DNA from: a virus
IMG/VR virus record: IMGVR_UViG_3300048609_000070
Reading direction: 5' to 3' (one strand)
DNA: 31,197 nucleotides
The notes beneath the pieces are model-generated. The model made no database searches and was not told the origin of the DNA. It saw nothing but the letters and a program-made list of their open reading frames with translations. This document shows, one piece after another, positions 5,167 through 28,954 of the stretch (positions within the stretch are counted from its first letter, which is position 1; every line of letters begins with the position of its first letter). The position numbers and the translations under genes are program-made.

Positions 5167-5180
5167 GCGTGATCTCCTTT

Positions 5181-11025: not shown

Positions 11026-11042
11026 TGGCGTAGATCCCAGTG

Positions 11043-13307: not shown

Positions 13308-13336
13308 TTTTTTCTTCTTTATTTAGTCTGCCCGCT

Positions 13337-13364
13337 ATTTTAGATGGGAAGAAGAAAAAGTCAA
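13337..13364 (-). promoter_or_regulatory. Candidate sigma-70-type promoter (TTGACT-16 nt-TAAAAT) ~27 nt upstream of the sigma-like gene start.
   Basis: This is the only sizeable intergenic gap (82 nt) in the replication module. The -35/-10 hexamers were read on the minus strand. Not validated. Confidence 0.3.
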
Positions 13365-13389
13365 GAGGTTTTTTTGTGGATTTTGAAAA

Positions 13390-13848: not shown

Positions 13849-15217
13849 CTGACCTTACCTTCATGACTTTAGTTCCAGGGACCAACCGATCCCCGACGTA
13901 GGAGGTTTCCCAGACTGCCATCAATGGGATGGTAACTCCAAGGATGCCATACCGTTGTTTATCTACAACCCACCAGAGTCGATTCTGTAGCCTGTCTTCT
14001 TTACTTTGTTTTAGTCGAATGACGGTTTCACAATGTGGAGCCATAAAGTTAGAAGCTGCAATATTATGGACTCCTTCTTCTGCTGCGTCCTTCTTTTTAC
14101 GCGAGTCGATTTCTGCAAGAGAAGCGTCCCTGCTTTCTTGCGTTGCAGTAAGAATAGCGGTGTCCTCAAACTTAGCAATTTCATGAAATTCTTGGAAGAG
14201 ATGATCGTACCGTTCGGATCTGCCATTAAACCGTGACATAGCAGGTGTTACAAGATTCGCGTAGTCGATTACAACGAGATCTGGTCCCACTCCGTTTGCA
14301 GCGCGGTAGAGCTCTATTTCCTCCATAATTGTTGTCGTTTTAGCCCCTTGTGCGATGTCTACTATCCAGATGTTCAACTTTTTTTTCAGTTCTTCTTTGA
14401 GTGCGAGTTTGTACTTTTTCTTTTCTTCTTTATCTAGCTTCCCAAAGAGTATTTTTTTGGAATCCACCCAAGAAATTCTGGAGTCAAAGCAAGTTGCCAA
14501 GAAATCGAAGGCCATTTCCAAGGTAATATACATCACCCGTCTGCCCGCGAGCGCAGCGTTATATGCCACATTGACGGCAGACCTCGTTTTCCCTCCACTG
14601 GTCTTGGAATAGAATAGCGTCAGGAAGGTCTTCCGCATGCCGCCAAGCTGCTCGTCAACGCTTGGGATACCGAAGGGTATCACTTCAGATGTCTCGCCCC
14701 TTGCAACCCTGTTGTACTCATCCCAGCGCTCTTGGACACGCTCGTAGACAAACCCACGGAGGACATTTCGGTCTTCCGTTCCGGTCGTCAAGAGATCTGT
14801 CATGAGTTTTTGTTTTAGTTTTCCAAAATCAATCTCCTCTCTTGTGAAAATTTCCTGAAGATTTGTTCCAATATCATATATTTTTCTTCCGAGCGCATAA
14901 TTATCCAATTTACTAAAATAGAAATTAGCATCAGACGTATTTACAAGAGGAAGCTTCTTTAGAACCTCCAGTGCTTTGATCATCTTTTCTGCGGATCGCT
15001 CACTTGTGTTATGTTCTTCCGCAAAATGCGCAAGTGTTACCTTGGATGGAACAGCTTTATATTTTAGAACGAATTTTCGGATTAGATGCATGAGGTCTCT
15101 ATGTTCTCTGATGGCGAACTGCTTTGGATTCATCGATAGAGACCGCATGTGTGTAGGAGATCGCATCAAAAGTGCAAGAACTTTCTTCTCCACACTGACA
15201 GAATGTAATTTGGCCAT
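13793..15217 (-). CDS. dnaB: DnaB-family replicative DNA helicase.
   Basis: N-terminal DnaB-like helical domain. C-terminal RecA-like domain with GIPSVDEQLGGMRKTFLTLFYSKTSGGKTRS (Walker A region) and LVVIDYANLV (Walker B). Confidence 0.85.
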   Translation of the reverse strand: MAKLHSVSVEKKVLALLMRSPTHMRSLSMNPKQFAIREHRDLMHLIRKFVLKYKAVPSKVTLAHFAEEHNTSERSAEKMIKALEVLKKLPLVNTSDANFYFSKLDNYALGRKIYDIGTNLQEIFTREEIDFGKLKQKLMTDLLTTGTEDRNVLRGFVYERVQERWDEYNRVARGETSEVIPFGIPSVDEQLGGMRKTFLTLFYSKTSGGKTRSAVNVAYNAALAGRRVMYITLEMAFDFLATCFDSRISWVDSKKILFGKLDKEEKKKYKLALKEELKKKLNIWIVDIAQGAKTTTIMEEIELYRAANGVGPDLVVIDYANLVTPAMSRFNGRSERYDHLFQEFHEIAKFEDTAILTATQESRDASLAEIDSRKKKDAAEEGVHNIAASNFMAPHCETVIRLKQSKEDRLQNRLWWVVDKQRYGILGVTIPLMAVWETSYVGDRLVPGTKVMKVRSDADRGNVRDYRSPTDSRG

Positions 15218-15220
15218 GGT

Positions 15221-15907
15221 TTATCTCGCATAATATCTGAAAATAACATCTTTCGAATTTGAGAAAATTGAATGAATGTGTGGTGGAAACTTTTCAAGGA
15301 TGCTGTCCCTTGTGTCGTTGGAGCTAATCAGAAGCGCGATGTTCGCGTCGTCAATATCACCCAATAATCGGAAAAACATCGTATTGGGGAAATTTTCCCA
15401 ATCCTTGCTAATATAAACTTTCTCCAGGTCTTCAATGGCAAGGATTTGCACGTCGCTCCGGAGGTATTCGAGAAATTCCCGGGCTTCTATATCTCTATAC
15501 GCACGTACTTGCAAATCATGGAGATCGTAAGCTTTCATGTAGTGGGCAACGTACTTTTTCTCGATCGCGCTTTTTAGAAGGCTGCAAATAATCGAACTTT
15601 TTGCTGCTCCAGGAGGAGAGCTGAACCAAAGCCCCTTGGATTTTCGAATGTTTAGTTCTAAATCATCACTGTACCGTTGCACGATTTTTAGTGCATCATG
15701 GTTGATCCTTCGGAATTCTTTTGTCAATCCTCGGAGGTCCCATTTTCTATATTTTTTTGGTATATTCGCATATTCCAACGATTTTTGCAAGATCTCCTTT
15801 TCCCTGCATTTGCAATGGTCTAACCGAATACCTGAAGGAGTTTTAGTTTGGATGATTCCGATGCCGTGACACCGATCACAGGTGCGTAACCGTTTTTTGG
15901 CGTGCAT
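15221..15907 (-). CDS. Putative helicase loader (DnaI/DnaC-like): N-terminal zinc ribbon plus P-loop ATPase.
   Basis: CDRCHG...HCKC zinc ribbon. GLWFSSPPGAAKSS Walker A-like and ILAIEDLEK Walker B-like segments. Position immediately downstream of dnaB. Confidence 0.55.
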   Translation of the reverse strand: MHAKKRLRTCDRCHGIGIIQTKTPSGIRLDHCKCREKEILQKSLEYANIPKKYRKWDLRGLTKEFRRINHDALKIVQRYSDDLELNIRKSKGLWFSSPPGAAKSSIICSLLKSAIEKKYVAHYMKAYDLHDLQVRAYRDIEAREFLEYLRSDVQILAIEDLEKVYISKDWENFPNTMFFRLLGDIDDANIALLISSNDTRDSILEKFPPHIHSIFSNSKDVIFRYYAR

Positions 15908-16421
15908 GGGCGTAACCGTAAAGTTGGTGTTTCTTCATGTAGTCTTCAAACTTTTTGTTTTCCTGGATGAGTTGGACATCGAGCTTCTGGATCTCTTTAT
16001 GCGTTGTCATATGCCCATTCTGGAGGAAACTGTAGAGGTAAGTGCTGCAAATATGCGAAATATGCGGCGTATTGACACCATTGAAGTATCGGTCGAATGC
16101 GCGATCGATGAATTCTTTATACTCTTTTTTTGTTATATTATTTTTAAGCATGAAATCTTCGATTCTCTGATAGGCACGAACGAGACTTCCCGACAGGTGA
16201 TATTCCTTGCGGTATCTGTCCTGGTACTGGTTGCAAAAATAATTATAAAAATCGAACGGCTTCCAATCATTGATACGCTTCATGTGCGTCCAAGCGCTGG
16301 TTTTATTGATATACATTTGCAACTTCTCATTCTGCTGGCGGACTTTGGCAAGGTAGGTTACAATATGCTGCTCAACGACGTCTGGATGGTGAAACCACGG
16401 AGCTACTCTCTTTTGAGCCAT
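15876..16421 (-). CDS. Hypothetical protein.
   Basis: 181-aa ORF with start/stop overlaps to both neighbours. No recognisable motifs. The overlapping 203-aa plus-strand ORF is antisense. Confidence 0.5.
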   Translation of the reverse strand: MAQKRVAPWFHHPDVVEQHIVTYLAKVRQQNEKLQMYINKTSAWTHMKRINDWKPFDFYNYFCNQYQDRYRKEYHLSGSLVRAYQRIEDFMLKNNITKKEYKEFIDRAFDRYFNGVNTPHISHICSTYLYSFLQNGHMTTHKEIQKLDVQLIQENKKFEDYMKKHQLYGYAHARQKTVTHL

Positions 16422-17932
16422 CGGGAACCCTCCAGGTTGAAGAAGTGTTTTTTTATTCGCATTTGTTTTATTACTGCACCCGTGATACTTTGATATATTT
16501 TTAACCTTGATCTACTCTGCCTCCGAAGGCATGGCCCATGATCGATGAAGTCCACTATAACACCATACTTCTTCCCTGCAGATGCCGTCAAAGATCGCAT
16601 TTTTTGAACCGTTGGAACCTGGCTCTTGAGTCCTTCCGCATTAATAACAATATCTAAACTAGGTAAATTCAGTCCTTCTTTACCTACTGTCCCAATGATG
16701 CAGTGTAACTTTTTTTCTTGCAACGCGGAATACACTTCCCGTCTTTGCTCAGTCGGAATTACTCCTTGTAGAAATATGCTATCAGGAATAAGATCTCTGA
16801 GGACTTCCCCGTGTGCTACCCTGTTGACAGTCACGAATACTGTCTTATTTTTCTTTTTAGCTTTGCTTACAAGCGTAGTAATAAAACGGTTCCTTGGAAT
16901 GTTCCCGACAATATTTGCTTCGTATTCATCCATGTAAGAAGACATAAAATTGGCGTACCATTCCACAGGAAGATCGAAAATATAGATAAAGGGTTTGGCA
17001 AGGCGTTTTTCTTTTACCAGAACATCATAGTTAACTTTGTTTACAATAGGTCCAATGGCAGCTTCTTCATTTAGTAAGCTCTCTTTTCTCGGTGTTCCGG
17101 AAAGACCTATTTTCAGGTACACGTTTCTAAATTCTCGCATCCATTGTCTAGAAATAGTTGCGTAGGAATGGTGGCACTCATCCAGAATAAGCATCTCCGT
17201 CCGTTGGATGCATTCTTTAATTTTGTAATTTCTTTCTAGGATAGCTCCAGATGATTTATATGTACCACGATTTCTTTTTGGAGCTCCAAAGACCGCGGCA
17301 AGTGCTTCATAACTGCTTACGATGACTTCTTCTGGTTCGTACCTTGATTCGGAGAACAGTCCAATTTTACGTCCACAGTGACTGGCAAGAGCTTGTTGTG
17401 TCTGAGCAACAAGATCTCTTTTAGAGGTAATGACCCAGATCGGTTGATGGTGATCAAGCTTATTTATTATTGCGCCAATAATGGCAGTCTTTCCTGACCG
17501 AACAGGCGCTTGGATAATTCCGTACCGATACTTGAGCGCCTTTTCTACAGCTTCTTTCTGAAAGGGAAGCAGCTTAAGATCACAGGCATGCACTTCGACA
17601 TCGTTGTACTTTGGAACTCTATCGAACTTCATTTCCACGTCGTATCCAAACGATTTCAAGATCTGCTCAATTCGGTAACAGCATCCTGTTGGCGCAACCT
17701 GCGTTTTGCTCATGAGACGGACTCGACCGTCCCATCCAAATTTCCTGTGTTGGGGTGTAAACTCAAACCCAGGCATCAAAAAAGACAGTTTGTACTGTAG
17801 CTCTTTAAGATGCTCCAAGGGAAGTCTTGGAGACACCTCGCACTGCACCGGCTCGATGTAGACGATAGCACGCATGATCGATACAATACTACAAGGCTGT
17901 TTCTGTTTCTTTCGGTTTGGACATCTCTGCAA
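16403..17932 (-). CDS. Superfamily-2 DExH helicase (ResIII/XPB-like) with an N-terminal accessory domain.
   Basis: LLPFQKEAV (Q-motif-like), APVRSGKTAI (motif I), LILDECHH (motif II), LSGTP (motif III), QKMRSLTASAGK (motif VI-like). Confidence 0.8.
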   Translation of the reverse strand: MQRCPNRKKQKQPCSIVSIMRAIVYIEPVQCEVSPRLPLEHLKELQYKLSFLMPGFEFTPQHRKFGWDGRVRLMSKTQVAPTGCCYRIEQILKSFGYDVEMKFDRVPKYNDVEVHACDLKLLPFQKEAVEKALKYRYGIIQAPVRSGKTAIIGAIINKLDHHQPIWVITSKRDLVAQTQQALASHCGRKIGLFSESRYEPEEVIVSSYEALAAVFGAPKRNRGTYKSSGAILERNYKIKECIQRTEMLILDECHHSYATISRQWMREFRNVYLKIGLSGTPRKESLLNEEAAIGPIVNKVNYDVLVKEKRLAKPFIYIFDLPVEWYANFMSSYMDEYEANIVGNIPRNRFITTLVSKAKKKNKTVFVTVNRVAHGEVLRDLIPDSIFLQGVIPTEQRREVYSALQEKKLHCIIGTVGKEGLNLPSLDIVINAEGLKSQVPTVQKMRSLTASAGKKYGVIVDFIDHGPCLRRQSRSRLKIYQSITGAVIKQMRIKKHFFNLEGSRWLKRE

Positions 17933-18722
17933 CTTTCCTTCGCAAAACCTTGAGGTTATGACGACGGAGGGAATCCAGGCCCAAGTTTAGTTCTTTGAAC
18001 GTGGTACGATGGTGGTGAAAAACAAAGGTCTCTAAACTTAACATTAGTTTATACCCGTGGAAGCGCAGCCGGTGACAATACTCGTCATCGTCACCCAGTC
18101 CAATAGACATTTCCTCACAGAGAAGACCAACTTTATTAATTGTGTCCCTGCGGAAAGCACAGCAAAAGAATGAGAGAGGGAAAATACCGACGTCAAGGTA
18201 GCGCCCAGGAAAAGCAGCTTCAAGCTTTTTTACATAATGATCTACATTTTTTTCATAAATTGGAACCTTGAGTTTTGGCCAATGAACATTGAGGTTTCTT
18301 CCTTCTTGCCAAGAGATCCGACTCTGCGTGACCGGGCCAACGGCACCGACTTTAGGATCCGCAATGAGGGGCTTGATGAGTTTACTTTCCCACTTGTAAG
18401 TAACCTCGGTATCGTTGTTTAGTAAAATAATGTAGTCGCCTTCTGCTTCCTTGATCCCTTGGTTGGTTGCCTGGATAAAACCCAGGTTCCTGGAGTTCCG
18501 GATAAGTTTACAGTGAACTCTTGGCTTGTGAATCTGGTGTTTAATGGCGCTGACATTATCCGGGGTGGATCCGTTGTCTACCCAGATGATCTCGTGTGGG
18601 ATCTTAGTTCCCGATCGAATGGATTGGAGACACCGGATCGTCATGCCCGATTGGTTGATGACAGGAATGACGATGGAAATCATTGGCTTGAAACCATCTT
18701 TATACATGTTTCGGATTCCCAT
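17889..18722 (-). CDS. Family-2 (GT-A fold) glycosyltransferase.
   Basis: ISIVIPVINQ...WVDNGSTPD...LLNNDTEV (DxD-type) motifs. Confidence 0.75.
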   Translation of the reverse strand: MGIRNMYKDGFKPMISIVIPVINQSGMTIRCLQSIRSGTKIPHEIIWVDNGSTPDNVSAIKHQIHKPRVHCKLIRNSRNLGFIQATNQGIKEAEGDYIILLNNDTEVTYKWESKLIKPLIADPKVGAVGPVTQSRISWQEGRNLNVHWPKLKVPIYEKNVDHYVKKLEAAFPGRYLDVGIFPLSFFCCAFRRDTINKVGLLCEEMSIGLGDDDEYCHRLRFHGYKLMLSLETFVFHHHRTTFKELNLGLDSLRRHNLKVLRRKVAEMSKPKETETAL

Positions 18723-19437
18723 GTCTTCTTAGTTCCTGGTCCTTGAACATTCTCTGCTTTCTTGAGTCCACATTGCCCTTATGCTGTATCAGGTCCGTTG
18801 CATGAAAATAACCAATCCAGTAACCATGACGAGCAGCTGCTTTGCTGATCATGTAGTCTACTCCATATTTTACTCCGTGTGGGTGTCCCCCAACTTTCAA
18901 AAAGACATCTTTTTTGCAGAGTCGGCATGCACCATTGACTAGCCACCTGTCCGGGTGATAGCTCACATAGACGGTCTCGCTGCTTCGAAGAGGATAGGTC
19001 TTGCCTCTTTCCCCCGAGTAGAGCTTCTTTCCTGACCGAAGCGCAAAGGAGCTGGTCCTCCAGGGCATGTCCCAGCTCAGGAAAGCCAGCTTCTGCTCGT
19101 TGACTTCTTCGTATGCTTCAACAATCCTCTTTGCAAAATCCGGTGGAGGAAGTATGTCGTCATCGATCTTGATAAGGTACTTCCCTCTTGCTTTCCGTGC
19201 CAGGAAGTTTATAGCCTCGACACCATAGTTTACTTCAGAACTATGGATAAAAGACACGTTGGAGTTTAGGTTTTTGTAGTCACAGAGCCAATCGAAGGTT
19301 CCATCTTCTGAAGCATTGTCCCAAACTAAGATTTCATGCTTTATTTTGCCAGTGAGAATTCCAATGGCAGGAACGTATTCCGAGGAGATCTTTATTCGGT
19401 TGTGCGTAAGGATAAGCAGAGAAACGAGAGGTGCCAC
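18700..19437 (-). CDS. Family-2 (GT-A fold) glycosyltransferase.
   Basis: VSLLILTHNR...LVWDNASEDGT...KIDDDILPPP motifs. Confidence 0.7.
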   Translation of the reverse strand: MAPLVSLLILTHNRIKISSEYVPAIGILTGKIKHEILVWDNASEDGTFDWLCDYKNLNSNVSFIHSSEVNYGVEAINFLARKARGKYLIKIDDDILPPPDFAKRIVEAYEEVNEQKLAFLSWDMPWRTSSFALRSGKKLYSGERGKTYPLRSSETVYVSYHPDRWLVNGACRLCKKDVFLKVGGHPHGVKYGVDYMISKAAARHGYWIGYFHATDLIQHKGNVDSRKQRMFKDQELRRHGNPKHV

Positions 19438-19438
19438 A

Positions 19439-19996
19439 CTATTTGATCCCTTCCAAATTCAGGCTAATCAAAGTGCCATTTTCTTTATCCAGATGCGGAA
19501 GGTACGATTGAGAGTAGTCGTCAAAACCAGAGAGCTCTCCAGAGAAAACCTCTCTCCAGTTCCAAGGACGTACTGTAGAAAATTCTGCTTTATAAAGAAC
19601 CTCGCTTAGTTTTTCTTTATCGTAGATTGCTTTGTGATTGACGATAGTAGCTTTATCTATAGCCCAACGTCCATAAATCGGTCCTGATACGAGGCTGACC
19701 ATTTTATACTGCAAGTATACTTTTGCAAGCGCTTCAAAATCAGGAACGGCAAGTCGAAGAATGCCTTTTGGCTGTAATTTAGAGTGCCACTCGTGAAGAA
19801 CGAATTTGACCTCCTCATCGTCGAAATACTCAAGGACGTGAGAAGCGTAAATGATCTCAACCGATCCATTTTCGATCATGGGAAGCTGTCTCAGATCATG
19901 GACGAAATCTATGTGAGGGTAGTGACTAAGATCGATATGTTTATATCCTGGAAGGTATCGTTTTCCGCAACCGAGATGAAGTTTGATGTTTTCCAT
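19439..19996 (-). CDS. Class I SAM-dependent methyltransferase.
   Basis: Motif I LHLGCGKRYLPGY. Acidic post-I HIDL. VEIIYASHVLEYF motif. Confidence 0.6.
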   Translation of the reverse strand: MENIKLHLGCGKRYLPGYKHIDLSHYPHIDFVHDLRQLPMIENGSVEIIYASHVLEYFDDEEVKFVLHEWHSKLQPKGILRLAVPDFEALAKVYLQYKMVSLVSGPIYGRWAIDKATIVNHKAIYDKEKLSEVLYKAEFSTVRPWNWREVFSGELSGFDDYSQSYLPHLDKENGTLISLNLEGIK

Positions 19997-19998
19997 TT

Positions 19999-21072
19999 TT
20001 AGCTTTCAAAGAATTCGTTTATTTTTGTACAAACAAACAGGATTTGTTCTTCTGTGAGATCTAAGGAAGAGGGAAGCCACAAGCCTCTTGGTGCTATATT
20101 TTCTGCAACAGGGAGACAAGTTTTCGAGTCAAAGTATACAGGTTGTTTATGAATAGGCGGATAGAATGAACGGCTACTAATCTCAAAACCTTTTAGATGA
20201 TTGATAAGCTTGTCCCGTAACATTTCTGTTGGACATAGGATATCGACGAACCAAGGAACTTCTTCTTTATTCATTGGAGCAATCGTTACTTTTTTAGTAA
20301 GGTTCTTTGCATATGTTTCAAAGATCTGTCTTTTCTTTGCTTTTCTCCATTCAATACTTTTGAGTTGGGTTCGTCCAAGCACTGCTTGCAAATCTGTAAA
20401 CTTGAAATTGTAGCCCATAGACGTATGCCAGTCAACACCTGGAGCGGATCTTCCAAAATCTTTGATTTGGCGGATCCGTTCGTAGATTACTTTATTATTA
20501 GTAACGACCAGACCCCCTTGACCCGTTGTAATAATCTTGTGAGGAGTTAACGAATAAACGCCTACCAGTCCAAAGGTTCCAAGATATTGGCCATCCACGC
20601 AAGACCCAAATGCCTGGCATGCGTCTTCGATCAAGATAAGATCTTTGGCTTTGCAATACTGAACAATAGACTTTATGTCCCCGCTCCTTCCATTGAGAGG
20701 GACATAGAGTACCGCCTTACAGTATTTTGGCGGGTAGCAGCTAAGAACATCCATCGTGAAGTCATCTGACCGAATGTCCACGAGCGTTGGGAGAGCATAG
20801 GCCCACCGTACAGCATTTGCCGTGGCTATCATCGTGAGTCCAGGAACGAGGACGATATCTCCAGGTTGGATTCCACAGGCCAGAAGGGCCACATACAGGC
20901 CCACGGTGCCGCTCGTGACTGCCACGCAATAGCGCACCCCAAGATAGTTGGCAACGTCTTCCTCGAAGGCTGCTGTTTCTTTATGTTCTGTAAGCCATTT
21001 ATTGCAGCGCAGGTAGTCCGTGATGGCTGAAACTTCATCTTCTCCGTAGACAGGGTGGATTTGATCGATCAC
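19999..21072 (-). CDS. DegT/DnrJ/EryC1/StrS-family PLP-dependent sugar aminotransferase.
   Basis: DACQAFGS and SLTPHKIITTGQGG (PLP-binding Lys). The fold-type I pattern runs the full length. GTG start in a GTGA overlap with the upstream cupin stop. Confidence 0.85.
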   Translation of the reverse strand: MIDQIHPVYGEDEVSAITDYLRCNKWLTEHKETAAFEEDVANYLGVRYCVAVTSGTVGLYVALLACGIQPGDIVLVPGLTMIATANAVRWAYALPTLVDIRSDDFTMDVLSCYPPKYCKAVLYVPLNGRSGDIKSIVQYCKAKDLILIEDACQAFGSCVDGQYLGTFGLVGVYSLTPHKIITTGQGGLVVTNNKVIYERIRQIKDFGRSAPGVDWHTSMGYNFKFTDLQAVLGRTQLKSIEWRKAKKRQIFETYAKNLTKKVTIAPMNKEEVPWFVDILCPTEMLRDKLINHLKGFEISSRSFYPPIHKQPVYFDSKTCLPVAENIAPRGLWLPSSLDLTEEQILFVCTKINEFFES

Positions 21073-21099
21073 AGTAATTCTCTTTCTTCGTCATCATTA
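21066..21099 (-). repeat. 34-nt direct repeat, copy A (cgatcacagtaattctctttcttcgtcatcatta), at the 3' end of cupin paralog 1.
   Basis: 33/34 identical to copy B. The surrounding gene sequence is only ~60% identical. Confidence 0.7.
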
Positions 21100-21476
21100 T
21101 CTACTTCATAAGGTCCGGGTTTCACCTCTAGTAATTTAGTTTCATTAGCACGCACGGTATAGCCTACTCCACCATTGTATAGTATGTAGAACTCTCCAGC
21201 TTGTAAATTTCGTGTGTCTACCAGGGTCTTACCTTTCTCTGAAAATGTACGAACTTCTACTGATCCTTTGAGTACAATAAGTATCTCTTCCGTCTTGTTT
21301 ATTTGACGTTTACGTTCTATGTGTCTATGATCTCGCAGGATCTTTCCAGAATTATACCAGAATGCTCCAACTTGAATAGCATTTTTTTTCGATCCATAAA
21401 AGGTTAGTCCCGGCTCAAAATTATTTATATCATCTACGATAGCAAGCAATGTCCCTTTGTGTTTAATTTCTTGCAT
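21069..21476 (-). CDS. Cupin-fold sugar-nucleotide ketoisomerase-like protein (FdtA/QdtA/WxcM C-terminal-domain family), paralog 1.
   Basis: 135 aa. HRHIERKRQ...ILIVLKGSVEV cupin His motif. About 50% identical to the C-terminal domain of the next gene, with an identical ...NDDEERELL C-terminus. Confidence 0.65.
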   Translation of the reverse strand: MQEIKHKGTLLAIVDDINNFEPGLTFYGSKKNAIQVGAFWYNSGKILRDHRHIERKRQINKTEEILIVLKGSVEVRTFSEKGKTLVDTRNLQAGEFYILYNGGVGYTVRANETKLLEVKPGPYEVDNDDEERELL

Positions 21477-21575
21477 TTGTTTCTTCCTCCATGACGCTCG
21501 CTACCATTTCATCTACGATCTGTGGCAATTTGATCTGAGGTTCCTTCTTATTCCCATTAAGAAGAACATACCCGA
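21477..21575 (-). pseudogene. Degenerate relic of a GDP-mannose dehydratase 3' end, sitting between the fusion gene and cupin paralog 1.
   Basis: On the minus strand it translates open as ...NGNKKEPQIKLPQIVDEMVASVMEEETNARN*. Compare the intact GMD C-terminus GWEPKTKIQDLIDEMVRSVMLEEQNS*. Its stop overlaps the following cupin start, exactly as in the intact GMD/next-gene junction. Confidence 0.5.
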
Positions 21576-21596
21576 TCACAGTAATTCTCTCTCTTC
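21563..21596 (-). repeat. 34-nt direct repeat, copy B, at the 3' end of the cupin domain of the fusion gene.
   Basis: cgatcacagtaattctctctcttcgtcatcatta. One mismatch to copy A. Confidence 0.7.
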
Positions 21597-22538
21597 GTCA
21601 TCATTATTTACAATGAATGGTCCATTCTTTATTTCTAGCATGCGTGTATCATCTTCTAATACGGTAAATCCTACTCCTCCATTATACGATACATAGAAGC
21701 TTCCAGCTTTTAGTATTCTGGTATCTATCAGATCTTTCCCAGTTGGTGCAAATGTCCGTGCTTCGCAGGATCCTTGCATTACAATTAATATCTCTTGAGT
21801 TTTTTTCGCGATTCGTTGCCGTTCAATATGTCGATGGTTTCTGAGAACTTTTCCTTTACCATAACAAAATTGTCCTACTTGGATGTTATCCTCGCGTTTT
21901 CCGTAAAATGATAATCCAGGTGCAAAGTTTTTTATATCATCTATGATTGCCAGTAACACGTCTTCGTGAACGATTTCGATTATTGGGCTAGACACATCTT
22001 TCTCTTTCGGTTTAACTAAAAATACATCCTGTTTTCTAGTTCCATCTTTGTTAAAAGGATCATTAATAATTCCCCTGATTTCAATCTTTTTGTTATATTT
22101 TTTACAAATGGTTATTAAGTTCTTCTGCATGACATCGTAAGTTGCTATAATTTTATTATAGTTAGGATCGGTAATATGGAAATATGTAAAATAAAAGCTA
22201 TCAAAGTTTTGTAGCACATCATTAATAAATTTGACTGGGTTGTCCAGATACTCTAGCAAACCTAGCGCTATGGCAATTCTTTGGGACTGTTCTCCTTTAA
22301 ACTCAGATGGGAATTTAGTATTTAAATCGTAGAATATCACAGTATCGTTCTGTTTAACCATGTCAATCCCAAAGTATTGTTGACCGCTAAGACATTTCTG
22401 TATTTCGCAAAAGCCACAACCAAAGTCATAAACGTATTTATATGAAAGTCTATTTATTAACTTTGCAAAGAATTCAGCTCTATACTTCCATATTTCTGCA
22501 TGTGACATTATTTTTCCTTTACGAATTTTGCTCCTCAA
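21576..22538 (-). CDS. Fusion protein: N-terminal class I SAM methyltransferase plus C-terminal FdtA-like cupin ketoisomerase domain (paralog 2).
   Basis: N-terminal VYDFGCGFC (motif I), GIDM, IAIALGLLEYL. The C-terminal ~135 aa align to the upstream cupin including the HRHIERQR motif and the NDDEERELL end. The start may be the second Met (11-nt overlap with gmd). Confidence 0.65.
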   Translation of the reverse strand: MRSKIRKGKIMSHAEIWKYRAEFFAKLINRLSYKYVYDFGCGFCEIQKCLSGQQYFGIDMVKQNDTVIFYDLNTKFPSEFKGEQSQRIAIALGLLEYLDNPVKFINDVLQNFDSFYFTYFHITDPNYNKIIATYDVMQKNLITICKKYNKKIEIRGIINDPFNKDGTRKQDVFLVKPKEKDVSSPIIEIVHEDVLLAIIDDIKNFAPGLSFYGKREDNIQVGQFCYGKGKVLRNHRHIERQRIAKKTQEILIVMQGSCEARTFAPTGKDLIDTRILKAGSFYVSYNGGVGFTVLEDDTRMLEIKNGPFIVNNDDEERELL

Positions 22539-23490
22539 GCATTACTGAACGCACCATTTCATCTATGAGATCTTGAATCTTAGTTTTTGGTTCCCAGCCT
22601 AGAACTCTTTTTATTTTTTCTGGGTTACCTAGCAATTCAGGAACTTCTTTTGGACGTTTATAACGGTCTTCTATCCTTACATATTTTTTCCAATCTAAGC
22701 CAAGATACGCAAAAACTTTTTCTAAGAACTCTTTTACAGAGTAGCATTCCCCTGTTGCAACAACAAAATCATCTGGAACCGAGTGCATTATTATTTTGTA
22801 TACAGCTTCCATATATTCCTTGCTTGAACCCCAATCTCTTTTTGCTTCTAAATTACCTAATGTAATATCTTTTTGTTTTCCTAGTTTTATCCGTACTGCA
22901 GCCCTGACTATTTTCTTCTCTACAAATGTCTCCCCACGTCTTGGTCCGCAATGATTGAAAAGGATTCCATTCGATGCAAACAATCCATAGCCATCTCTAT
23001 ATGTACGAACCATCCAGTACGCCGCGAGTTTTGCAATACCGTAGGGGCTACATGGAACAAATTGAGTATTTTCGTTTTGTGGCGGTGGTGACATTCCAAA
23101 TTGTTCACTCGAAGATGCATGATAAATTCTTACCTTGTTTTTCCATCCTAAATTTCTAATAGCTTCAAGAATACGAGTTGGACCAACTGCATTGGTATCC
23201 ATTGTATAGATAGGAACATCAAAGGATACCCGCACATGACTCATTGACGCCATATTAAAAATTATATCTGGATTTATATCATGTAGGACCGTTTCAATAT
23301 TTCCTGTAAGATCTCCATAAACAAGTTTTATTTTTTCAGTAGGAAGAAGCAGATGATCAATTCTTGTGGTATTTATAGAACTAGATCTTCGGACGATTCC
23401 GTATACCTCATAGCCTTTTTCTAGTAGCAGCTCAGCTAAGTAGCTTCCATCTTGGCCATTAATACCCGTAACGAGCGCACGATTAGTCAT
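22519..23490 (-). CDS. gmd: GDP-mannose 4,6-dehydratase.
   Basis: ALVTGINGQDGSYLAELLLEKGYEVYGIVRRSS N-terminus. SSSEQFG, YGIAKLAAYW (YxxxK), and ILFNHCGPRRGETFVEKKI (the GMD NHESPRRGETFVTRKI box). Confidence 0.9.
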   Translation of the reverse strand: MTNRALVTGINGQDGSYLAELLLEKGYEVYGIVRRSSSINTTRIDHLLLPTEKIKLVYGDLTGNIETVLHDINPDIIFNMASMSHVRVSFDVPIYTMDTNAVGPTRILEAIRNLGWKNKVRIYHASSSEQFGMSPPPQNENTQFVPCSPYGIAKLAAYWMVRTYRDGYGLFASNGILFNHCGPRRGETFVEKKIVRAAVRIKLGKQKDITLGNLEAKRDWGSSKEYMEAVYKIIMHSVPDDFVVATGECYSVKEFLEKVFAYLGLDWKKYVRIEDRYKRPKEVPELLGNPEKIKRVLGWEPKTKIQDLIDEMVRSVMLEEQNS

Positions 23491-23493
23491 TCT

Positions 23494-24246
23494 TTACCTC
23501 GATCCCCAGTTTTGTTCAAGATTTGCAACAAGAACAAATTTCTTTGCCATATCCTGAAACATATATTCATTCCTTAACCGGTATTCCTTATTGAAGTACG
23601 CTTTATCCCTTGAATGCGGAAGGTGAACCATCGAAGTTACATTATTTATTCGTACTTCTTGGTATCCACAATATTGTGCCCGGATAAATAGATTCTTGTC
23701 TTCAAATCCCCAGCCAATATATCTTTCGTCGTGGCCATGCACATCTATAAGCCAATTTCTATCTAAGGCATTACAACACCCTTCTCCATGCGGAGGTTTC
23801 TTAGCTTTTTTTGCAAGATCCAACAATACTTTGTATGTCTCATTCGTATATGTTTTTGGTTCTACACCTGATGGAAGCCCGTACAAGAAATATGTATAGC
23901 ACATTACGAATGATTTATGAGTAACGACTTTTTTATAAACTTCTAAAAAGAAATTAGGAGCAAAAATTTGATCTGCATCTGTCATACAAATGTATGTTGT
24001 TCTTGCTTCTTTTATGCCAATATTTAACGCACGTGTTTTATGAAAAATAGCTGTATTTCTGTCTACCCGCACAACTTTGACCCATGGGTATTCTTTTACA
24101 ACAACTGGAGTGCTACTTCCAAAATCCACAATGAGTAATTTTGGACGAGGAACGCATAAAGAAATAGATTTTATGCAAAATTCAAGATTTAATCTCCGAT
24201 CTTTGCATGCAATAACTGCAGTCAAATCTAGATCATTTAAATCCAT
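23494..24246 (-). CDS. GT-A-fold glycosyltransferase (GT2/GT7-like).
   Basis: ICMTDADQIF DxD motif. C-terminal IGWGFEDKNLFIR resembles the WGxEDxD box of galactosyltransferase-like GT-A enzymes. Confidence 0.65.
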   Translation of the reverse strand: MDLNDLDLTAVIACKDRRLNLEFCIKSISLCVPRPKLLIVDFGSSTPVVVKEYPWVKVVRVDRNTAIFHKTRALNIGIKEARTTYICMTDADQIFAPNFFLEVYKKVVTHKSFVMCYTYFLYGLPSGVEPKTYTNETYKVLLDLAKKAKKPPHGEGCCNALDRNWLIDVHGHDERYIGWGFEDKNLFIRAQYCGYQEVRINNVTSMVHLPHSRDKAYFNKEYRLRNEYMFQDMAKKFVLVANLEQNWGSR

Positions 24247-25246
24247 TTTCTGAAAGGACGTTCAGTAATTGTCTAGCACGGTTTTGGTAAGTATGACTTT
24301 TAAGAGTTTTTACTCTGCCATTAACCCCAATCCGTAATCTTTCTTCTGGTCTTGCCATGTAATATTTTGCTTTTTTTACAAAGTCATTACAATCATCAAA
24401 AAAAACTACATCCTTCTCATTCTCAAATACTTTCTCAAGCCCTGGATTTTTGTCCAGCATGAGAAATCCTGCAACACCCATTATAATAGGAACTCGGTCA
24501 TTCAGATACATATCTGCTTTTATAACATGATTAGACATATTTATTCTTGAACGGCAATAATGTTCATGAACAGTTGTCCATAATGTTTCTCCTTTATAAT
24601 ACTGCGATAGTAAAGAACTTCCAGAAATAAAAGGTTTTCCATTCCTTGCAATTGTTTTGTCCGCTACCCAAAGATGATTACCATATAGCTCTATGTTTTT
24701 TATTCCTTCTCTGATAAGACCGAATACGGCGTCTTTTCTTGCCATTTTTGTACACACATAGGGTGTTCCAACAAATACGAAGTCCACTTTATCTTCTTCT
24801 TTGACGTATGTATATTGTCTCGCCGAGCTGTCAAAAGCAGGCCAAAATAAGTATGGTTTGAGACCGACTTTCGTATAAGATGGGAATGACTCTTTCGCAC
24901 ATGTTAGCGCAATTCTGAATCCGGCATACAAATGATTACTCATGAATGCTGGTACAAAAAATGGATCATCTTGTGACCAATAAACAGACATTCCAACATT
25001 TTTATTTATCCATTTTGCTATTTCAAGGTCTATTTTGAATTTAGGTTTTAATGCTTTTGTAGCGAAATAAACATCTGGTTTTGTTCTAATTATTTCTTTC
25101 TTAAGGACTTCACTGTACTTTTTTCCTCCGTCTTTACAATCCAAATAATGTAACCATACAGCATTATGATCAAGAACTTCATGACCCATTGTCTTTAGTG
25201 TACTTACCATTTCTGGGTAAGATCCACCATTAAAGAAAAATTTCAC
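24233..25246 (-). CDS. CgeB-like (Glyco_trans_1_2 family) glycosyltransferase.
   Basis: C-terminal ...VFFDDCNDFVKKAKYYMARPEERLRIGVNGRVKTLKSHTYQNRARQLL matches the CgeB-family signature (...HTYxxR...). Soluble, no transmembrane segment. Confidence 0.6.
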   Translation of the reverse strand: MKFFFNGGSYPEMVSTLKTMGHEVLDHNAVWLHYLDCKDGGKKYSEVLKKEIIRTKPDVYFATKALKPKFKIDLEIAKWINKNVGMSVYWSQDDPFFVPAFMSNHLYAGFRIALTCAKESFPSYTKVGLKPYLFWPAFDSSARQYTYVKEEDKVDFVFVGTPYVCTKMARKDAVFGLIREGIKNIELYGNHLWVADKTIARNGKPFISGSSLLSQYYKGETLWTTVHEHYCRSRINMSNHVIKADMYLNDRVPIIMGVAGFLMLDKNPGLEKVFENEKDVVFFDDCNDFVKKAKYYMARPEERLRIGVNGRVKTLKSHTYQNRARQLLNVLSENGFK

Positions 25247-25248
25247 TA

Positions 25249-26154
25249 TTATCTCCTAACTATGCTATTAAATAGCCTATAAAAAAAATTGAAAATGAAT
25301 TTTGGATCTGTATATTGCGTACATCTATTACTTAGATACCATGGCTGCCGTAACATATTGCAGTATGCTTTATCATCTCTATCTAAGGACACAACTTTTT
25401 CTATTAAATAATCATACATGTAATCATCGCTTTTAAAGTCCTTTCCAACAACGTTTACAAAGCTATTCATGTTAAAATCTTTATATACTTGTGGATTACC
25501 CCAGTATATTGGAATACTATTTGCTTGCATAGGATTGTAAATTTTTTCAGACGTGTACCCTACGGCAAATCTGTTCTCAAAAGAAATAGTAAATTTGAAC
25601 TGCTTTAAGTACTCAACTTTATCTATGTAAAAATTAGCACTAAGTCTAGAATCCATTGCGGTTTTGTGACCGCCAATTGGATCTGTATTTGTGCAGCATG
25701 GACCAGGCGAATGAACAAATTTGTACTTACTTAGTTTGTCAAAAAATATATTTCGATGTGGAACGCTGTGCCAATAGATAAATGCACAAAATTTTGTCTT
25801 TTGACTAAGAATTTTTTCTGGACTGTACGTTGGATCTTTTATTAAATCTGTACCTGCACCATTGAAAGTATAATTTGGAAAACGCAAGTAATTAGGTGAT
25901 TTTATTGTATCTGGATACTGCCAACCTAACGCCCACTCACAAGTAGACATTTTTGTTTGCATGTACTCACGTGCATAGGATATCCTAATACATTTTTCTC
26001 TTGGTGAATCTGTTTTTGAAAAGAAGATAACAAAATCAGGATTTTTTGACACGACAAATTTGAAGTTTGCTAGGACTTCTGGCATGTTCCTAAAAAAGTA
26101 TGCAGGGTCATCTACTTTACCACCAGCTCTAATTTGTATTTTTATTTCTTTCAA
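25249..26154 (-). CDS. GT10-family alpha-1,3-fucosyltransferase-like glycosyltransferase.
   Basis: KFTISFENRFAVGYTSEKIYNPMQANSIPIYWG matches the GT10 alpha-1,3-FucT motif (FxL/VxFENSxxxxYxTEK). Confidence 0.7.
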   Translation of the reverse strand: MKEIKIQIRAGGKVDDPAYFFRNMPEVLANFKFVVSKNPDFVIFFSKTDSPREKCIRISYAREYMQTKMSTCEWALGWQYPDTIKSPNYLRFPNYTFNGAGTDLIKDPTYSPEKILSQKTKFCAFIYWHSVPHRNIFFDKLSKYKFVHSPGPCCTNTDPIGGHKTAMDSRLSANFYIDKVEYLKQFKFTISFENRFAVGYTSEKIYNPMQANSIPIYWGNPQVYKDFNMNSFVNVVGKDFKSDDYMYDYLIEKVVSLDRDDKAYCNMLRQPWYLSNRCTQYTDPKFIFNFFYRLFNSIVRR

Positions 26155-26761
26155 TTTTTTCTCCTAGTATACAGTGTAACGCATACAAGTAAGCTTCATC
26201 TTTATGCAAAAATGCATAATCATAAGATTCTATTGTATTTATTCTTTTGTATAATGGCATTAGCATAAGTAAATGCTCATAAATTGACATAATTGGAAAA
26301 AAGTTAGATGTTGAGTTTATTTCATTTAAAAAAGTACCTATTGTTTTCTCACTTGGCATTCTACATGGGTGAGCTACACCATACTTTTCTTTGAATTTAT
26401 CTAACTGAAAAGCAGGCTCACCAAAAGGAAATACATGCACGATCATTCTTCTTGAAACTCTATAGGATTCCAGCAGGAATACGTGATGGTCTTCTACGTG
26501 TTCAAGCGTATCAATCGAGATAGCCGCATCAAAATTGTCATTTCTATAAGGTAATTTCAGACAGTTTATTGCTACAGAATTCGCATGGATATCACTATTA
26601 GCGTTTACTACGGTGCAATCCAAAAAATTATTAATTCTTCCTGTACCTCCCATGTCAATTACTGACATAGGTTTTATTTTTGTTAGTAGATCTGCAACGG
26701 AGTAGTGTACTACTGCTGCCACAACTGGAATATCTAGGATATTATTTTTGACACCTGTCAT
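26129..26761 (-). CDS. Class I SAM-dependent methyltransferase.
   Basis: SVIDMGGTGRI (motif I). NDNFDAAISIDTLEHV (motif II/III). Confidence 0.65.
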   Translation of the reverse strand: MTGVKNNILDIPVVAAVVHYSVADLLTKIKPMSVIDMGGTGRINNFLDCTVVNANSDIHANSVAINCLKLPYRNDNFDAAISIDTLEHVEDHHVFLLESYRVSRRMIVHVFPFGEPAFQLDKFKEKYGVAHPCRMPSEKTIGTFLNEINSTSNFFPIMSIYEHLLMLMPLYKRINTIESYDYAFLHKDEAYLYALHCILGEKIERNKNTN

Positions 26762-27684
26762 ATCATTTCCAAGAATTCTAAAAGTGTAGCTACTCTATTA
26801 GAAATATTGTGCATCTTACGTGTAATATCATACATGTTTTTTCCTATTTTTTCTCTAAGGAGATTATCTTTTAATAGATGGTCAATCTTAACCAACAAAT
26901 CTGATAGATCGTTATAGAAAATAATGTCTGAATTTACTCCTAAGATATCCCGTGCTTCTTTTCTATCTTTAGTTATAACAGGTGTTCCACATGCCATACA
27001 CTCGAACATTCTATGCGCGAGCGGTGAATTTTCTTGCTGTAAATCTAGACTAATTTTCGCACTGTTTATTTCTTTGATAAATTCTTGTCCTTCTAATTGA
27101 CCATATGATCGAATATTTTTCCAATTTGTTCCAAATATTTTTATCTTATAAGAAGGAAATTTTTTCAAGATATGATTCATCGTATTAATACGGTACGTTG
27201 CAGGAGTGAATCTGCTATGGAACCCTTGTCCGTATACTATTATATCAGTTGTTTTTTCCAAATTTATTTTTCTATGAAACGAAGTATCGCATGCTGTTGG
27301 AAAATAAAAAGTTTTGATTTTTTCTCGTGTATGTAAAAATGTGTTGTAGCAATTTGTGACGTAAATATTGTAATTAAGTAATTTATTCTCGTCCCATTCG
27401 TATGGATCTGAGAACCCAAAACCGAGAACACGCGATCCTAAATTATTAATATCGTGCAGCGTACAACCTGAGTATTGAGACCATGTATGCGCGATCCATA
27501 CGTCAGTAAACTTTTCCTTTTTTATGGTATTAAGAAGTTCAGATCCATCAATTATGTTTTTTTCTAAACTGTGGACATTTTTCCATTTAATAGAAAAATT
27601 ACGAGATTGCATTTCTTTAAAAATTGAACATTTAGTTCCGCAAACATTCTCTGCGTATGAGTCTGACAAATATAATATTTTCAT
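26758..27684 (-). CDS. GT4 (glycosyl transferases group 1, GT-B) glycosyltransferase.
   Basis: C-terminal E-x7-E-like region with ECMACGTPVITKD. Typical GT-B length. Confidence 0.75.
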   Translation of the reverse strand: MKILYLSDSYAENVCGTKCSIFKEMQSRNFSIKWKNVHSLEKNIIDGSELLNTIKKEKFTDVWIAHTWSQYSGCTLHDINNLGSRVLGFGFSDPYEWDENKLLNYNIYVTNCYNTFLHTREKIKTFYFPTACDTSFHRKINLEKTTDIIVYGQGFHSRFTPATYRINTMNHILKKFPSYKIKIFGTNWKNIRSYGQLEGQEFIKEINSAKISLDLQQENSPLAHRMFECMACGTPVITKDRKEARDILGVNSDIIFYNDLSDLLVKIDHLLKDNLLREKIGKNMYDITRKMHNISNRVATLLEFLEMI

Positions 27685-28178
27685 TCTCTGTACCTTATAA
27701 ACTTTGCTGGATTACCTCCAACAATAGCATTGTCTGGTACGTCATTGTTAACAACGGATCCAGCTCCTACTACAGCGCCAGATCCGATGACAACTGGACC
27801 AACAATAATCGCACCAGCTCCAATCCATGATCCATTTTTTATTTCTATTCTTCCTGGTATGTTATCCTGTTCAGCAATAGACTTTCCCTTTTTTATACCA
27901 TGATTTTGCGCGTATATTCCAACATTCGGAGAAATTAGTACAGTTTCTCCAATTACTACGTTACCAAGAGCATGTATAATTGTGTTCACTCCGAGAACAG
28001 AATCATTGCCTATTACTATTGTTCCGCTACAGGTACGAAGTATCACTCCAGGTCGAATTCGTACTCTATTCCCGATAATGATACGGCCTGAACCATTCTC
28101 CTCGAAGCCAAGATAAGCAGAGTTATCTATGGAGCATTTATCTCCTATTTTAATTTCTTTTAGCGTTTTGCTTATCAT
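27681..28178 (-). CDS. Left-handed beta-helix (hexapeptide-repeat) acyl/acetyltransferase, candidate amino-sugar N-acetyltransferase (FdtC/QdtC/PerB-like).
   Basis: Repeated [LIV]-G-x-x-x-x-I hexapeptides (IGNRVRIRPGVIL...IGAGAIIVGPVVIGSGAVVGAGSVV). Confidence 0.8.
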   Translation of the reverse strand: MISKTLKEIKIGDKCSIDNSAYLGFEENGSGRIIIGNRVRIRPGVILRTCSGTIVIGNDSVLGVNTIIHALGNVVIGETVLISPNVGIYAQNHGIKKGKSIAEQDNIPGRIEIKNGSWIGAGAIIVGPVVIGSGAVVGAGSVVNNDVPDNAIVGGNPAKFIRYRE

Positions 28179-28954
28179 TTTTTTCTAAATAAGTAATTGT
28201 TTATTTTGTAAAAGTTTTTAGATACAAGTGCATTACCATTTCTTTGCCAGCTGTGAACAGACTGCGAAAAATGCCCTGAAGTTGGTTTTACCATACTGCT
28301 TACCTCTAGCGACAACAAACCATCCGTAACCAAAGAATCACTTATACTATTGAACGATGCGATAGGATCCGCAATATGCTCTAGCACGTCTAGGCAGATA
28401 ACTGCATTGTACATATTTTTACATAAAATACTGTCTGGGTAAAAAAACGAATTTATTTTTATTTTTCTATTTGTTACCCGCCATTTTGCATAATTATACA
28501 ATGGACCATCCACGTCTAAAAGGTCTACAATAGCTCCCTTTTGGGAACAGTATATTCCATGACTACCTACGCCACAACCGTAATCTAAGATACGTTTATC
28601 CTTAAACCCACCAATATTCTTTTCCAAGTCTTTAATATAGCTGCTCCTTCTTTCAACTGTTAGCGTAGAAAGAGTCCTAAGATAATCGACGGTTTCGAGG
28701 TACACATATTTTTTGTATATGAACTCGTAAGATGATGCTTGAATGTCCTTGTCTTCATATAAACGAATAGATGCTGGAGATGCAATTGCAAGACTTTTTA
28801 TTTTAGAAATTTTCAATCCGGAATACAAGGATAGCTCGTAGTCTATCTCATCCTGTGTTTCTTGAAAAATATTGTTAGCCACGGTTGCTCTTCCCGCTAG
28901 ATAGAACAAACTCACGCATTTTCTTTTTGTTTCTTTCAAAAACTTCGTCATCAA
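28175..28954 (-). CDS. Class I SAM-dependent methyltransferase.
   Basis: KRILDYGCGVGSHGIY (motif I), DLLDVD, AVICLDVLEHIADP. The annotated start overlaps the radical-SAM gene by 80 nt, so the true start is uncertain (no internal ATG; possibly a non-ATG start). Confidence 0.7.
   Translation of the reverse strand: MMTKFLKETKRKCVSLFYLAGRATVANNIFQETQDEIDYELSLYSGLKISKIKSLAIASPASIRLYEDKDIQASSYEFIYKKYVYLETVDYLRTLSTLTVERRSSYIKDLEKNIGGFKDKRILDYGCGVGSHGIYCSQKGAIVDLLDVDGPLYNYAKWRVTNRKIKINSFFYPDSILCKNMYNAVICLDVLEHIADPIASFNSISDSLVTDGLLSLEVSSMVKPTSGHFSQSVHSWQRNGNALVSKNFYKINNYLFRKK

Follow-up and report, generated by a model that had tools for sequence, protein, structure and literature searches.

The window analysed here, a 31,197-nt stretch of IMG/VR virus record IMGVR_UViG_3300048609_000070, comes from an uncultured phage of about 136 kb. 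It carries a glycan gene cluster in which one gene for GDP-mannose 4,6-dehydratase (GMD) is accompanied by two related cupin genes, one fused to a methyltransferase-like domain (cupin1) and one free-standing (cupin2). The most satisfactory explanation of the locus is additive, mosaic recombination within a phage glycan cassette: a second unit, made of a GMD 3′ end and a cupin gene, stands in tandem with the first, yet the two cupins are not sister copies. Taking the evidence as a whole, we lean towards recombination between diverged cassettes with replacement of cupin sequence, rather than duplication and divergence in place. We would call the copies xenologues brought next to each other, or else a young duplication with one copy later overwritten by sequence from a diverged relative.

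A tandem unit with a GMD relic at its junction

All genes of the window lie on the minus strand, along which the order at the locus is GMD, methyltransferase–cupin1 fusion, a 99-nt gap, cupin2 and a perosamine-synthase-like aminotransferase. The open reading frames (ORFs) described in an earlier reading made from the letters alone (hereafter the sequence-only reading) were found in place. The features of the locus are as follows.

22519–23490, minus: intact GMD, 323 amino acids (aa), C-terminus ...EEQNS followed by the stop codon
21576–22508, minus: fusion gene, 310 aa, from an ATG preceded by AAGGA (the likelier start); 21576–22538 if translated from a TTG
21984–22508, minus: methyltransferase-like N-terminal domain of the fusion, its first 175 residues; small, resembling class I S-adenosylmethionine (SAM) methyltransferases, motif I YDFGCG
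21576–21983, minus: cupin1, the C-terminal domain of the fusion, its last 135 residues
21573–21607, minus: direct repeat copy 1, the last 32 nt of cupin1 plus TCG
21545–21572, minus: junction filler of 28 nt, between the aminotransferase-start remnant and the GMD relic
21463–21544, minus: GMD 3′-end relic of 82 nt, encoding EPQIKLPQIVDEMVASVMEEETNARN and a stop codon
21463–21579, minus: bridge ORF, an open frame of 38 codons read directly from the sequence
21069–21476, minus: cupin2, free-standing, 135 aa, WbuC-like
21066–21100, minus: direct repeat copy 2, the last 32 nt of cupin2 plus TCG
19999–21072, minus: DegT/DnrJ/EryC1 aminotransferase, whose GTG start overlaps the cupin2 stop

The flanking enzymes are readily assigned. 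GMD matches Pfam GDP_Man_Dehyd (PF16363) with 391 bits and NCBIfam gmd (TIGR01472) with 396 bits, slightly below the equivalog cut-off of 415, and is 70–77% identical to the GMDs of related loci. The aminotransferase matches Pfam DegT (PF01041) with 283 bits, and its best solved relatives are the GDP-perosamine synthases 3bn1 and 3dr7 (E = 5e-47).

The repeated unit has a period of 507 nt and consists of the GMD 3′ end, a cupin gene and the heptamer GTGATCG. The two copies are arranged head to tail in the same order and orientation, and the joint between them is novel, running from position +7 of the aminotransferase gene through the 28-nt filler into the GMD relic. The sequence-only reading had proposed a duplicated unit of GMD 3′ end plus cupin gene, which is what we find, extended by the first 7 nt of the aminotransferase gene.

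The gap between the fusion and cupin2 (21477–21575, 99 nt) translates as a peptide that ends in KKEPQIKLPQIVDEMVASVMEEETNARN and a stop codon, and had been interpreted as a degenerate GMD C-terminus. Alignment bears this out for an 82-nt relic, which matches the GMD 3′ end of the related locus L003 at 64 of 82 ungapped positions (z = 23; 0 of 500 shuffles as good) and those of six other relatives at 50–56 of 82, also ungapped, each alignment finishing exactly at the stop codon. The frame of the relic stops 14 nt inside cupin2, and intact GMD likewise stops 14 nt inside the cupin gene in L001–L005, L008, L009, L020 and L022–L024. The alignment to the GMD ends of seven relatives, the exact stop and the 14-nt register shared with related loci show that the relic is real, and by these sequence comparisons it is a GMD end of the cupin-overlapping type. 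The sequence-only reading had added that the relic overlaps the next start exactly as the intact GMD does; this is true of the relatives and not of the window, in which 10 nt containing AAGGA separate the end of GMD from the likely ATG of the fusion.

Against the window's own GMD end the relic matches at 42 of 70 positions (60%), no closer than to any other lineage and no higher than GMD ends of different phages match one another. A GTTCTT match that would lengthen the relic from 82 to about 100 nt was also considered; it lacked significance, and the extension was dismissed. The third-position GC content (GC3) of the relic in the correct frame, recounted by hand, is 11 of 27 (0.41) and is uninformative.

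The relic contains a GGAGGA Shine–Dalgarno sequence for cupin2, 8–13 nt upstream of the cupin2 ATG; because it holds this ribosome-binding site, part of the relic is expected to be under selection. The bridge ORF begins with a GTG that overlaps the cupin1 stop (GTGA) and ends 14 nt inside cupin2, so that the pattern of start/stop overlaps is unbroken from the fusion through the bridge ORF and cupin2 to the aminotransferase. Thus the relic would supply the Shine–Dalgarno sequence of cupin2, and the open 38-codon frame is a possible translational-coupling bridge that could keep cupin2 coupled to the gene before it.

The 28-nt filler has no clear homology, and local alignments begin at relic base 31. 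Within the filler, GTTCTTCTT pairs with AAGAAGGAAC at the start of the relic to give a 9-bp stem with a 7-nt loop, which could be the footprint of fold-back or template switching at an illegitimate joint, or chance. The overall RNA fold of the gap is not significant (z-score −0.74), the gap has no match in Rfam at E ≤ 1, and promoter-like and terminator-like sites in it occur at the level of shuffled sequence only.

Near-identical cupin tails

The two units share direct repeats of 35 nt, identical at 34 of 35 positions and 507 nt apart; in the repeat search, no shuffle of the window gave two matches. The near-perfect block comprises 31 of 32 positions within the ORFs plus the TCG past the stop. 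In copy 1 this TCG is part of GTGATCG (21573–21579), the same seven nucleotides with which the aminotransferase gene begins, and in copy 2 it belongs to the real GTGATCG start of that gene. The sequence-only reading had counted 33 identities in the last 34 nt; the near-identity stands and the count does not, as the last 34 nt of the two ORFs agree at 32 positions.

Where the two cupins have the same amino acid, they use the same codon at 9 of 10 positions in the tail and at 35 of 74 in the body (P ~0.007). In other lineages, which have the same peptide tail and the same overlap, only 3–5 of 10 codons are identical to either window copy. By this codon comparison, the identity of the tails is greater than peptide conservation explains; the sequence-only reading had suggested gene conversion, or selection on the nucleotide or peptide tail. 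The tail peptide itself, (N/S)DDEERELL, is conserved among lineages, and D128 and R132 do not vary; an acidic tail occurs throughout the family of these cupins and is modelled as the terminal strand.

The cupins are not sister copies

Cupin1 and cupin2 are 61.5% identical in protein and 64.5% in nucleotide sequence, above the roughly 50% and 60% estimated previously. Their synonymous sites are saturated (proportion of synonymous differences, pS, 0.75), with 43% identity at third positions. By comparison, cupin2 and the cupin gene of L005 are 88% identical in nucleotide sequence (pS 0.34; non-synonymous distance, dN, 0.037). In neighbour-joining trees cupin2 groups with the L005 cupin in 100% of bootstrap replicates and with cupin1 in 0%; cupin1 groups weakly with L003, the cupin of which is its closest relative (68%). 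The L005 cupin has an intact end of GMD (at least 66 residues) upstream of it and is followed by a gene for a GDP-fucose-synthase-like short-chain dehydrogenase/reductase (SDR; L005 613–1119).

These results do not fit sister paralogues that arose by tandem duplication in place, as the sequence-only reading had proposed: the bootstrap values, the saturated pS and the relic, which is 60% identical to the window's own GMD end and 78% to that of L003, all disagree with it. The relic is also much younger than the split between the two cupins, because it is still 61–78% identical to functional GMD ends and has an open frame.

The unduplicated arrangement, for which the sequence-only reading had recommended a search, is present in about 16 related loci (L001–L005, L007–L013, L018, L020, L022–L024). 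All have a single GMD and a single cupin gene, usually followed by an aminotransferase gene, and several share the entire downstream backbone of methyltransferase, two family 2 glycosyltransferases (GT2), helicase and DnaB. Upstream of GMD the loci differ, so that the GMD/cupin border separates a variable island from a conserved core. The arrangement in the window is derived and, so far, unique.

Two other kinds of variation were observed in the related loci. L013 has DegT aminotransferase genes on both sides of its GMD–cupin pair (1174–2211 and 3570–4583). The GMD genes of L001 (1439–3490, 683 aa) and L008 (1262–3415, 717 aa) are each split by a large insertion, at different sites (after about residue 180 in L001 and about residue 142 in L008, in the numbering of the window GMD). 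Given a faint LAGLIDADG match in L001, these insertions are probably inteins.

High identity between cupin2 and L005 is confined, by eye, to a patch from about −24 to +375. Upstream of it, the first 58 nt of the relic are 55% identical to L005 and 72% to L003; downstream, the cupin2 tail is only 68% identical to L005. A three-sequence maximum chi-square test places a breakpoint near position 375 (permutation P < 5e-5); we treat it as supporting evidence only, because the L005 tail may be the derived one.

A methyltransferase-like domain fused to cupin1

Judged by its motif I and by the matches of its homologues, the N-terminal domain of the fusion is probably a remote member of the class I SAM methyltransferases. 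Its own match to Methyltransf_8 (E = 0.005–0.008, 16.5–17.3 bits) is below the cut-off of 27 bits; among 15 homologues of the domain, however, 10 match Methyltransf_8 and 5 match Methyltransf_23, and the family profile matches the methyltransferase 2zfu (E = 3e-4) and Hen1. The YDFGCG motif I and the acidic residue D49 are invariant in the 15 homologues. In the fold model, residues 1–60 form a beta–alpha structure with a predicted local distance difference test score (pLDDT) of about 90, and residues 70–170 score below 65. All matches in a fold search with the model came from the cupin half, and none from the low-confidence methyltransferase half.

Free-standing homologues of the domain (170–240 aa) exist, including one about 5 kb upstream of the GMD–cupin pair of L020, in a cluster syntenic with that of the window, and one directly upstream of GMD in L022. 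In the window, the domain sits exactly between the end of GMD (...EEQN) and codon 1 of cupin1. It starts exactly where, in relatives, the cupin ATG lies within the end of GMD; GAGCAAAAT is followed by TCGTAA in the window, and the corresponding GAACAAAAT by GCT in relatives. An in-frame linker of about 10 residues joins the domain to the first codon of cupin1, which is now ATA.

The sequence-only reading had described the fusion to a SAM methyltransferase as an unfamiliar architecture. The domain assignment is probably right and the pairing is unique among the sequences searched, and two analogous fusions exist. A word-indexed protein search for the fusion returned only the protein itself, an exhaustive search of 1.84 billion representatives gave this methyltransferase family together with a cupin in none of the 150 best matches listed, and a search of viral contigs with the methyltransferase domain found nothing; the arrangement was found in one phage lineage only. 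P0075 (L021 5001–6593) combines a TylC3-like sugar C-methyltransferase with a C-terminal WbuC-like cupin, and P0082 a Methyltransf_25/11 domain with a C-terminal WbuC-like cupin; in both cases a DegT aminotransferase gene is next, and L021 has two GMD-like SDRs and a NUDIX gene upstream. On the sequences found, the fusion is therefore unique for this methyltransferase family, yet the methyltransferase–cupin architecture is recurrent. Its recurrence next to aminotransferases points to a functional link between the cupin step, methylation and transamination.

A compositional step at the cupin2/aminotransferase border

The sequence-only reading had reported a GC seam beyond about 21.6 kb. The seam exists, about 0.5 kb from that point: GC3 steps at the cupin2/aminotransferase overlap, near 21,070, from 0.27 in cupin2 to 0.43 in the aminotransferase. 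Both cupins, the methyltransferase domain, GMD and all genes upstream (21069–31087) have GC3 of 0.22–0.34, and most genes from 1363 to 21072 have 0.38–0.54, which makes the aminotransferase the first gene of the higher-GC3 backbone. The two cupins are identical in composition (GC 0.37, GC3 0.27). The same genes are compositionally uniform in L001, L002, L003, L008, L010, L011, L022 and L023, and the step therefore marks a mosaic joint in the window genome. The variable glycan island appears to have come from a lower-GC relative.

Cupin family and putative function

Both cupins had been called FdtA-like. Neither has a Pfam match at E ≤ 0.01, FdtA (PF05523) included, or a match in PHROGs, and searches of the PDB with a single sequence and with a profile gave nothing below E = 0.5. 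The sole family match is to the WbuC model TIGR04366 (35.1 bits, E = 1e-8, for cupin2; 31.8 bits, E = 1e-7, for cupin1), the cut-off of which, 42 bits, is reached by neither. Because some more distant relatives exceed that cut-off (for example, P0040 with 46.4 bits), we regard the window cupins as related to the curated WbuC family yet below its threshold, and replace the earlier name with WbuC-like.

The AlphaFold model of cupin2 is a cupin barrel (pLDDT 77.6), and the fold resembles that of nucleotide-sugar cupins. Both proteins keep all 29 columns that are invariant in a nine-sequence family alignment, including H50-R51-H52, R55, R57, T62, E64, GGVG 102–105, E117 and K119. Both cupins are intact, and their putative substrate is GDP-4-keto-6-deoxy-D-mannose from GMD, on which they would act as a 3,4-ketoisomerase or epimerase before transamination. 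We infer this role from gene context. Either activity would fit L005, which has a reductase after the cupin in place of the aminotransferase. No 3,4-ketoisomerase for GDP-4-keto-6-deoxymannose has been identified, and the two-step route to perosamine needs no cupin (PMC8944477).

A wider proposal, which we put forward as speculative and consider possible rather than probable, is that GMD-linked WbuC-like cupins are GDP-4-keto-6-deoxy-D-mannose 3,4-ketoisomerases, on a mycosamine-type route, or a new class of C3 or C5 epimerase. If so, the methyltransferase–cupin fusions would, with the aminotransferase, be channelled modules for methylated amino-deoxy sugars, and one plain and one fused cupin would give two GDP sugars from one GMD and one aminotransferase.

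Proposed history and alternatives

The ancestral core, as the relatives display it, is GMD, cupin, perosamine-synthase-like aminotransferase, methyltransferase, two GT2 genes and helicase, with GMD ending 14 nt inside the cupin gene and the cupin stop overlapping the aminotransferase start. To this core a second unit was added in tandem, comprising at least the last 82 nt of GMD, a cupin gene and the first 7 nt of the aminotransferase gene. An illegitimate join may have linked position +7 of the aminotransferase gene to a point about 100 nt before a GMD stop, either by short tandem duplication or by unequal exchange during co-infection by relatives. One or both cupin bodies could then have been replaced through homologous exchange with diverged relatives, so that the 35-nt block of tail plus start alone stayed nearly identical and cupin2 became an L005-like patch unlike its flanks. 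In the upstream copy the site of the former GMD/cupin overlap is taken exactly by a small SAM-methyltransferase gene, of a kind that is free-standing in relatives and seemingly mobile around the variable island, and this gene is fused in frame to cupin1. The fused cupin would couple its step to methylation and so yield a second, methylated sugar. Alternatively, unequal exchange between two already diverged cassettes may have been followed by a short conversion of the tail.

Several observations weigh against this history or against the function attached to it. No genome with a parental state was found, whether an unduplicated GMD/methyltransferase–cupin1/aminotransferase locus or a true double of cupin2, and without these neither the number of events nor their order can be fixed. 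A confounding factor in the breakpoint test is L005, which has a different downstream gene and possibly a derived tail of its own. The remnant of the aminotransferase start past the cupin1 stop is only 3 nt, which chance would give about once in 64, and the equally low GC3 of the cupins means that composition cannot separate them. The methyltransferase domain is folded with low confidence. As to function, sequence searches did not connect the cupins to FdtA or RmlC, WbuC-like cupins have no known enzymatic role, and the aminotransferase is closest to C4-specific perosamine synthases, which require no isomerase.

The main competitor is the model of the sequence-only reading, in which tandem duplication in place was followed by long divergence and a recent conversion of the last 35 nt, with the relic kept by selection. 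It accounts for the unit structure and the 507-nt period, which are exactly as expected of tandem duplication, for the shared composition of the cupins and for a relic that carries the cupin2 ribosome-binding site. We nevertheless consider it unlikely, given that cupin2 is nearer to the L005 cupin than to cupin1 in nucleotide identity, pS and bootstrap support, that none of the approximately 16 related loci carries the duplication and that a neutral relic as old as the cupin split should not resemble GMD ends so closely in an open frame. Selection alone, acting on the C-terminal strand and on the ribosome-binding site and start of the next gene, might instead have kept the 35-nt identity with neither recombination nor conversion. 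The conserved tail peptide with its two invariant residues, and the stop/start overlap with the next ORF in both copies, are what it predicts; against it are the codons of other lineages, which under the same peptide agree at no more than half of the positions, and the three identical bases past the stop, which occur after cupin1 although no real gene starts there. We rate this explanation lower still than duplication in place.

Either cupin, or the fusion, could also be a functionless passenger heading to decay, in an arrangement without a biological role. Its restriction to one phage lineage and its apparent youth, which leaves little time for selection, are compatible with this. Yet both ORFs are intact with every family-invariant residue in place, the fusion is in frame with a clean linker, the chain of start and stop overlaps is unbroken and independent methyltransferase–cupin fusions argue for usefulness; we therefore give a passenger about as little credence as duplication in place. 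Least probable by far is an assembly artefact that joined two strain variants of a single cupin locus into a tandem pair. The source is metagenomic, and the copies are related and have the 35-nt block in common. However, a second, independent Logan assembly is 100% identical across 20089–22970 of the window (2,882 nt, from GMD to the aminotransferase), a range that takes in both copies and every junction; the copies share exact stretches of just 16 and 18 nt, below usual assembly k-mers; and no strain variant supplies the unique filler and GMD relic at the junction. Recombination of diverged cassettes thus remains the reading we favour.

The phage and its glycan cluster

The phage is represented by a JGI contig of 136.5 kb, which carries the record of the fusion protein. 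Nucleotide and protein searches of deposited phages revealed no near relative: GMD fragments gave matches of 73–76%, the cupin had one match, in an uncultured megaphage (29%), and the DNA polymerase of the window is at most 30% identical to those of cultured phages.

Positions 1–17.9 kb hold a replication and repair block that encodes SbcCD, a UvsX-like recombinase, a family A DNA polymerase, a DnaG-type zinc finger, DnaB, a helicase loader and a helicase. The 675-aa UvsX-like recombinase (6069–8096, minus) matches its family in three separate stretches, and a 40-residue piece of it resembles a segment of the large terminase. The gene may hold another inserted element or intein. A 754-aa ORF (11043–13307, minus) has a weakly sigma-factor-like N-terminus and a run of about 200 residues, nearly all Asp or Glu, that derives from 9-, 24- and 27-nt tandem repeats at 11815–12174, with a Lys-rich region after it. 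This Asp/Glu repeat run accounts for the extreme GC and AT skew at 11.5–12.5 kb.

The glycan cluster occupies 17.9–31.1 kb, about 14 kb of the window. It encodes two GT2s, a methyltransferase, the DegT aminotransferase, the two cupins and GMD, and beyond them a GT2, a GT1, a GT10, a methyltransferase, another GT1 and a hexapeptide-repeat (acetyltransferase-type) protein (27681–28178, upstream of the cupin locus), before ending with a methyltransferase, a B12-binding radical-SAM enzyme and a second NDP-sugar SDR. The last two lie at the far end of the cluster (28875–30212 and 30143–31087, minus), and the radical-SAM enzyme is 60% identical to that of L020. Methyltransferase genes or domains number at least five in the cluster, a sign that the glycan is heavily methylated.

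Significance and comparison with known systems

As evolution, the locus is a tidy and fairly ordinary case of phage mosaicism. It offers a clean, datable example of the diversification of a phage glycan cassette in which a gene was added, not swapped, at a translationally coupled border, and in which the added copy retains a stub of the upstream gene as the source of its ribosome-binding site. Its main value is as a pointer to an uncharacterized cupin family that is encoded nearly always directly after GMD and usually before a perosamine-synthase-like aminotransferase, and that has been fused to three unrelated methyltransferases. This pattern makes the family a testable candidate for 3,4-ketoisomerization of GDP-4-keto-6-deoxymannose (PMC8944477) or for a new epimerase. 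Current understanding is overturned neither by the evolutionary nor by the biochemical aspect.

The closest evolutionary parallel is phage mosaicism by illegitimate and homeologous recombination, which shares with the window breakpoints at gene boundaries or overlaps, a compositional step and a foreign patch with unlike flanks. The difference is that the outcome in the window is additive, with two homologous genes and the relic of a gene end, rather than the replacement of one allele by another.

Among enzymes, the FdtA, QdtA and Tyl1a ketoisomerases are likewise small cupins (about 135 aa) whose genes lie between those for a 4,6-dehydratase and a DegT aminotransferase, and they have an H-x-H motif on the barrel (HRH 50–52 in the window cupins). 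The known enzymes, however, act on dTDP sugars and have no sequence-level match to the window cupins. The bifunctional FdtD and WxcM proteins resemble the fusion in joining a cupin to a tailoring enzyme, although the partner in the window is a methyltransferase. Cupin epimerases, among them RmlC and, for GDP sugars, WbcA and the GDP-heptose 3-epimerase, offer a second comparison: the pairing of cupin and GDP-fucose-synthase-like reductase in L005 parallels the WbcA/WbcB epimerase–reductase route.

WbuC proteins are similar to the window cupins in size (about 132 aa) and are linked to O-antigen loci by name and in the literature found, where they appear mainly as a marker gene beside mcr-9 and blaCTX-M; no enzymatic function of WbuC turned up in the literature searched. 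The GDP-perosamine pathway, which consists of GMD and perosamine synthase with or without a hexapeptide N-acetyltransferase, has counterparts in the window for each of these: GMD, the 3bn1/3dr7-like aminotransferase and the hexapeptide-repeat protein. What sets the phage loci apart from that pathway is the cupin gene always inserted between GMD and the aminotransferase, of which the phage studied here has two.

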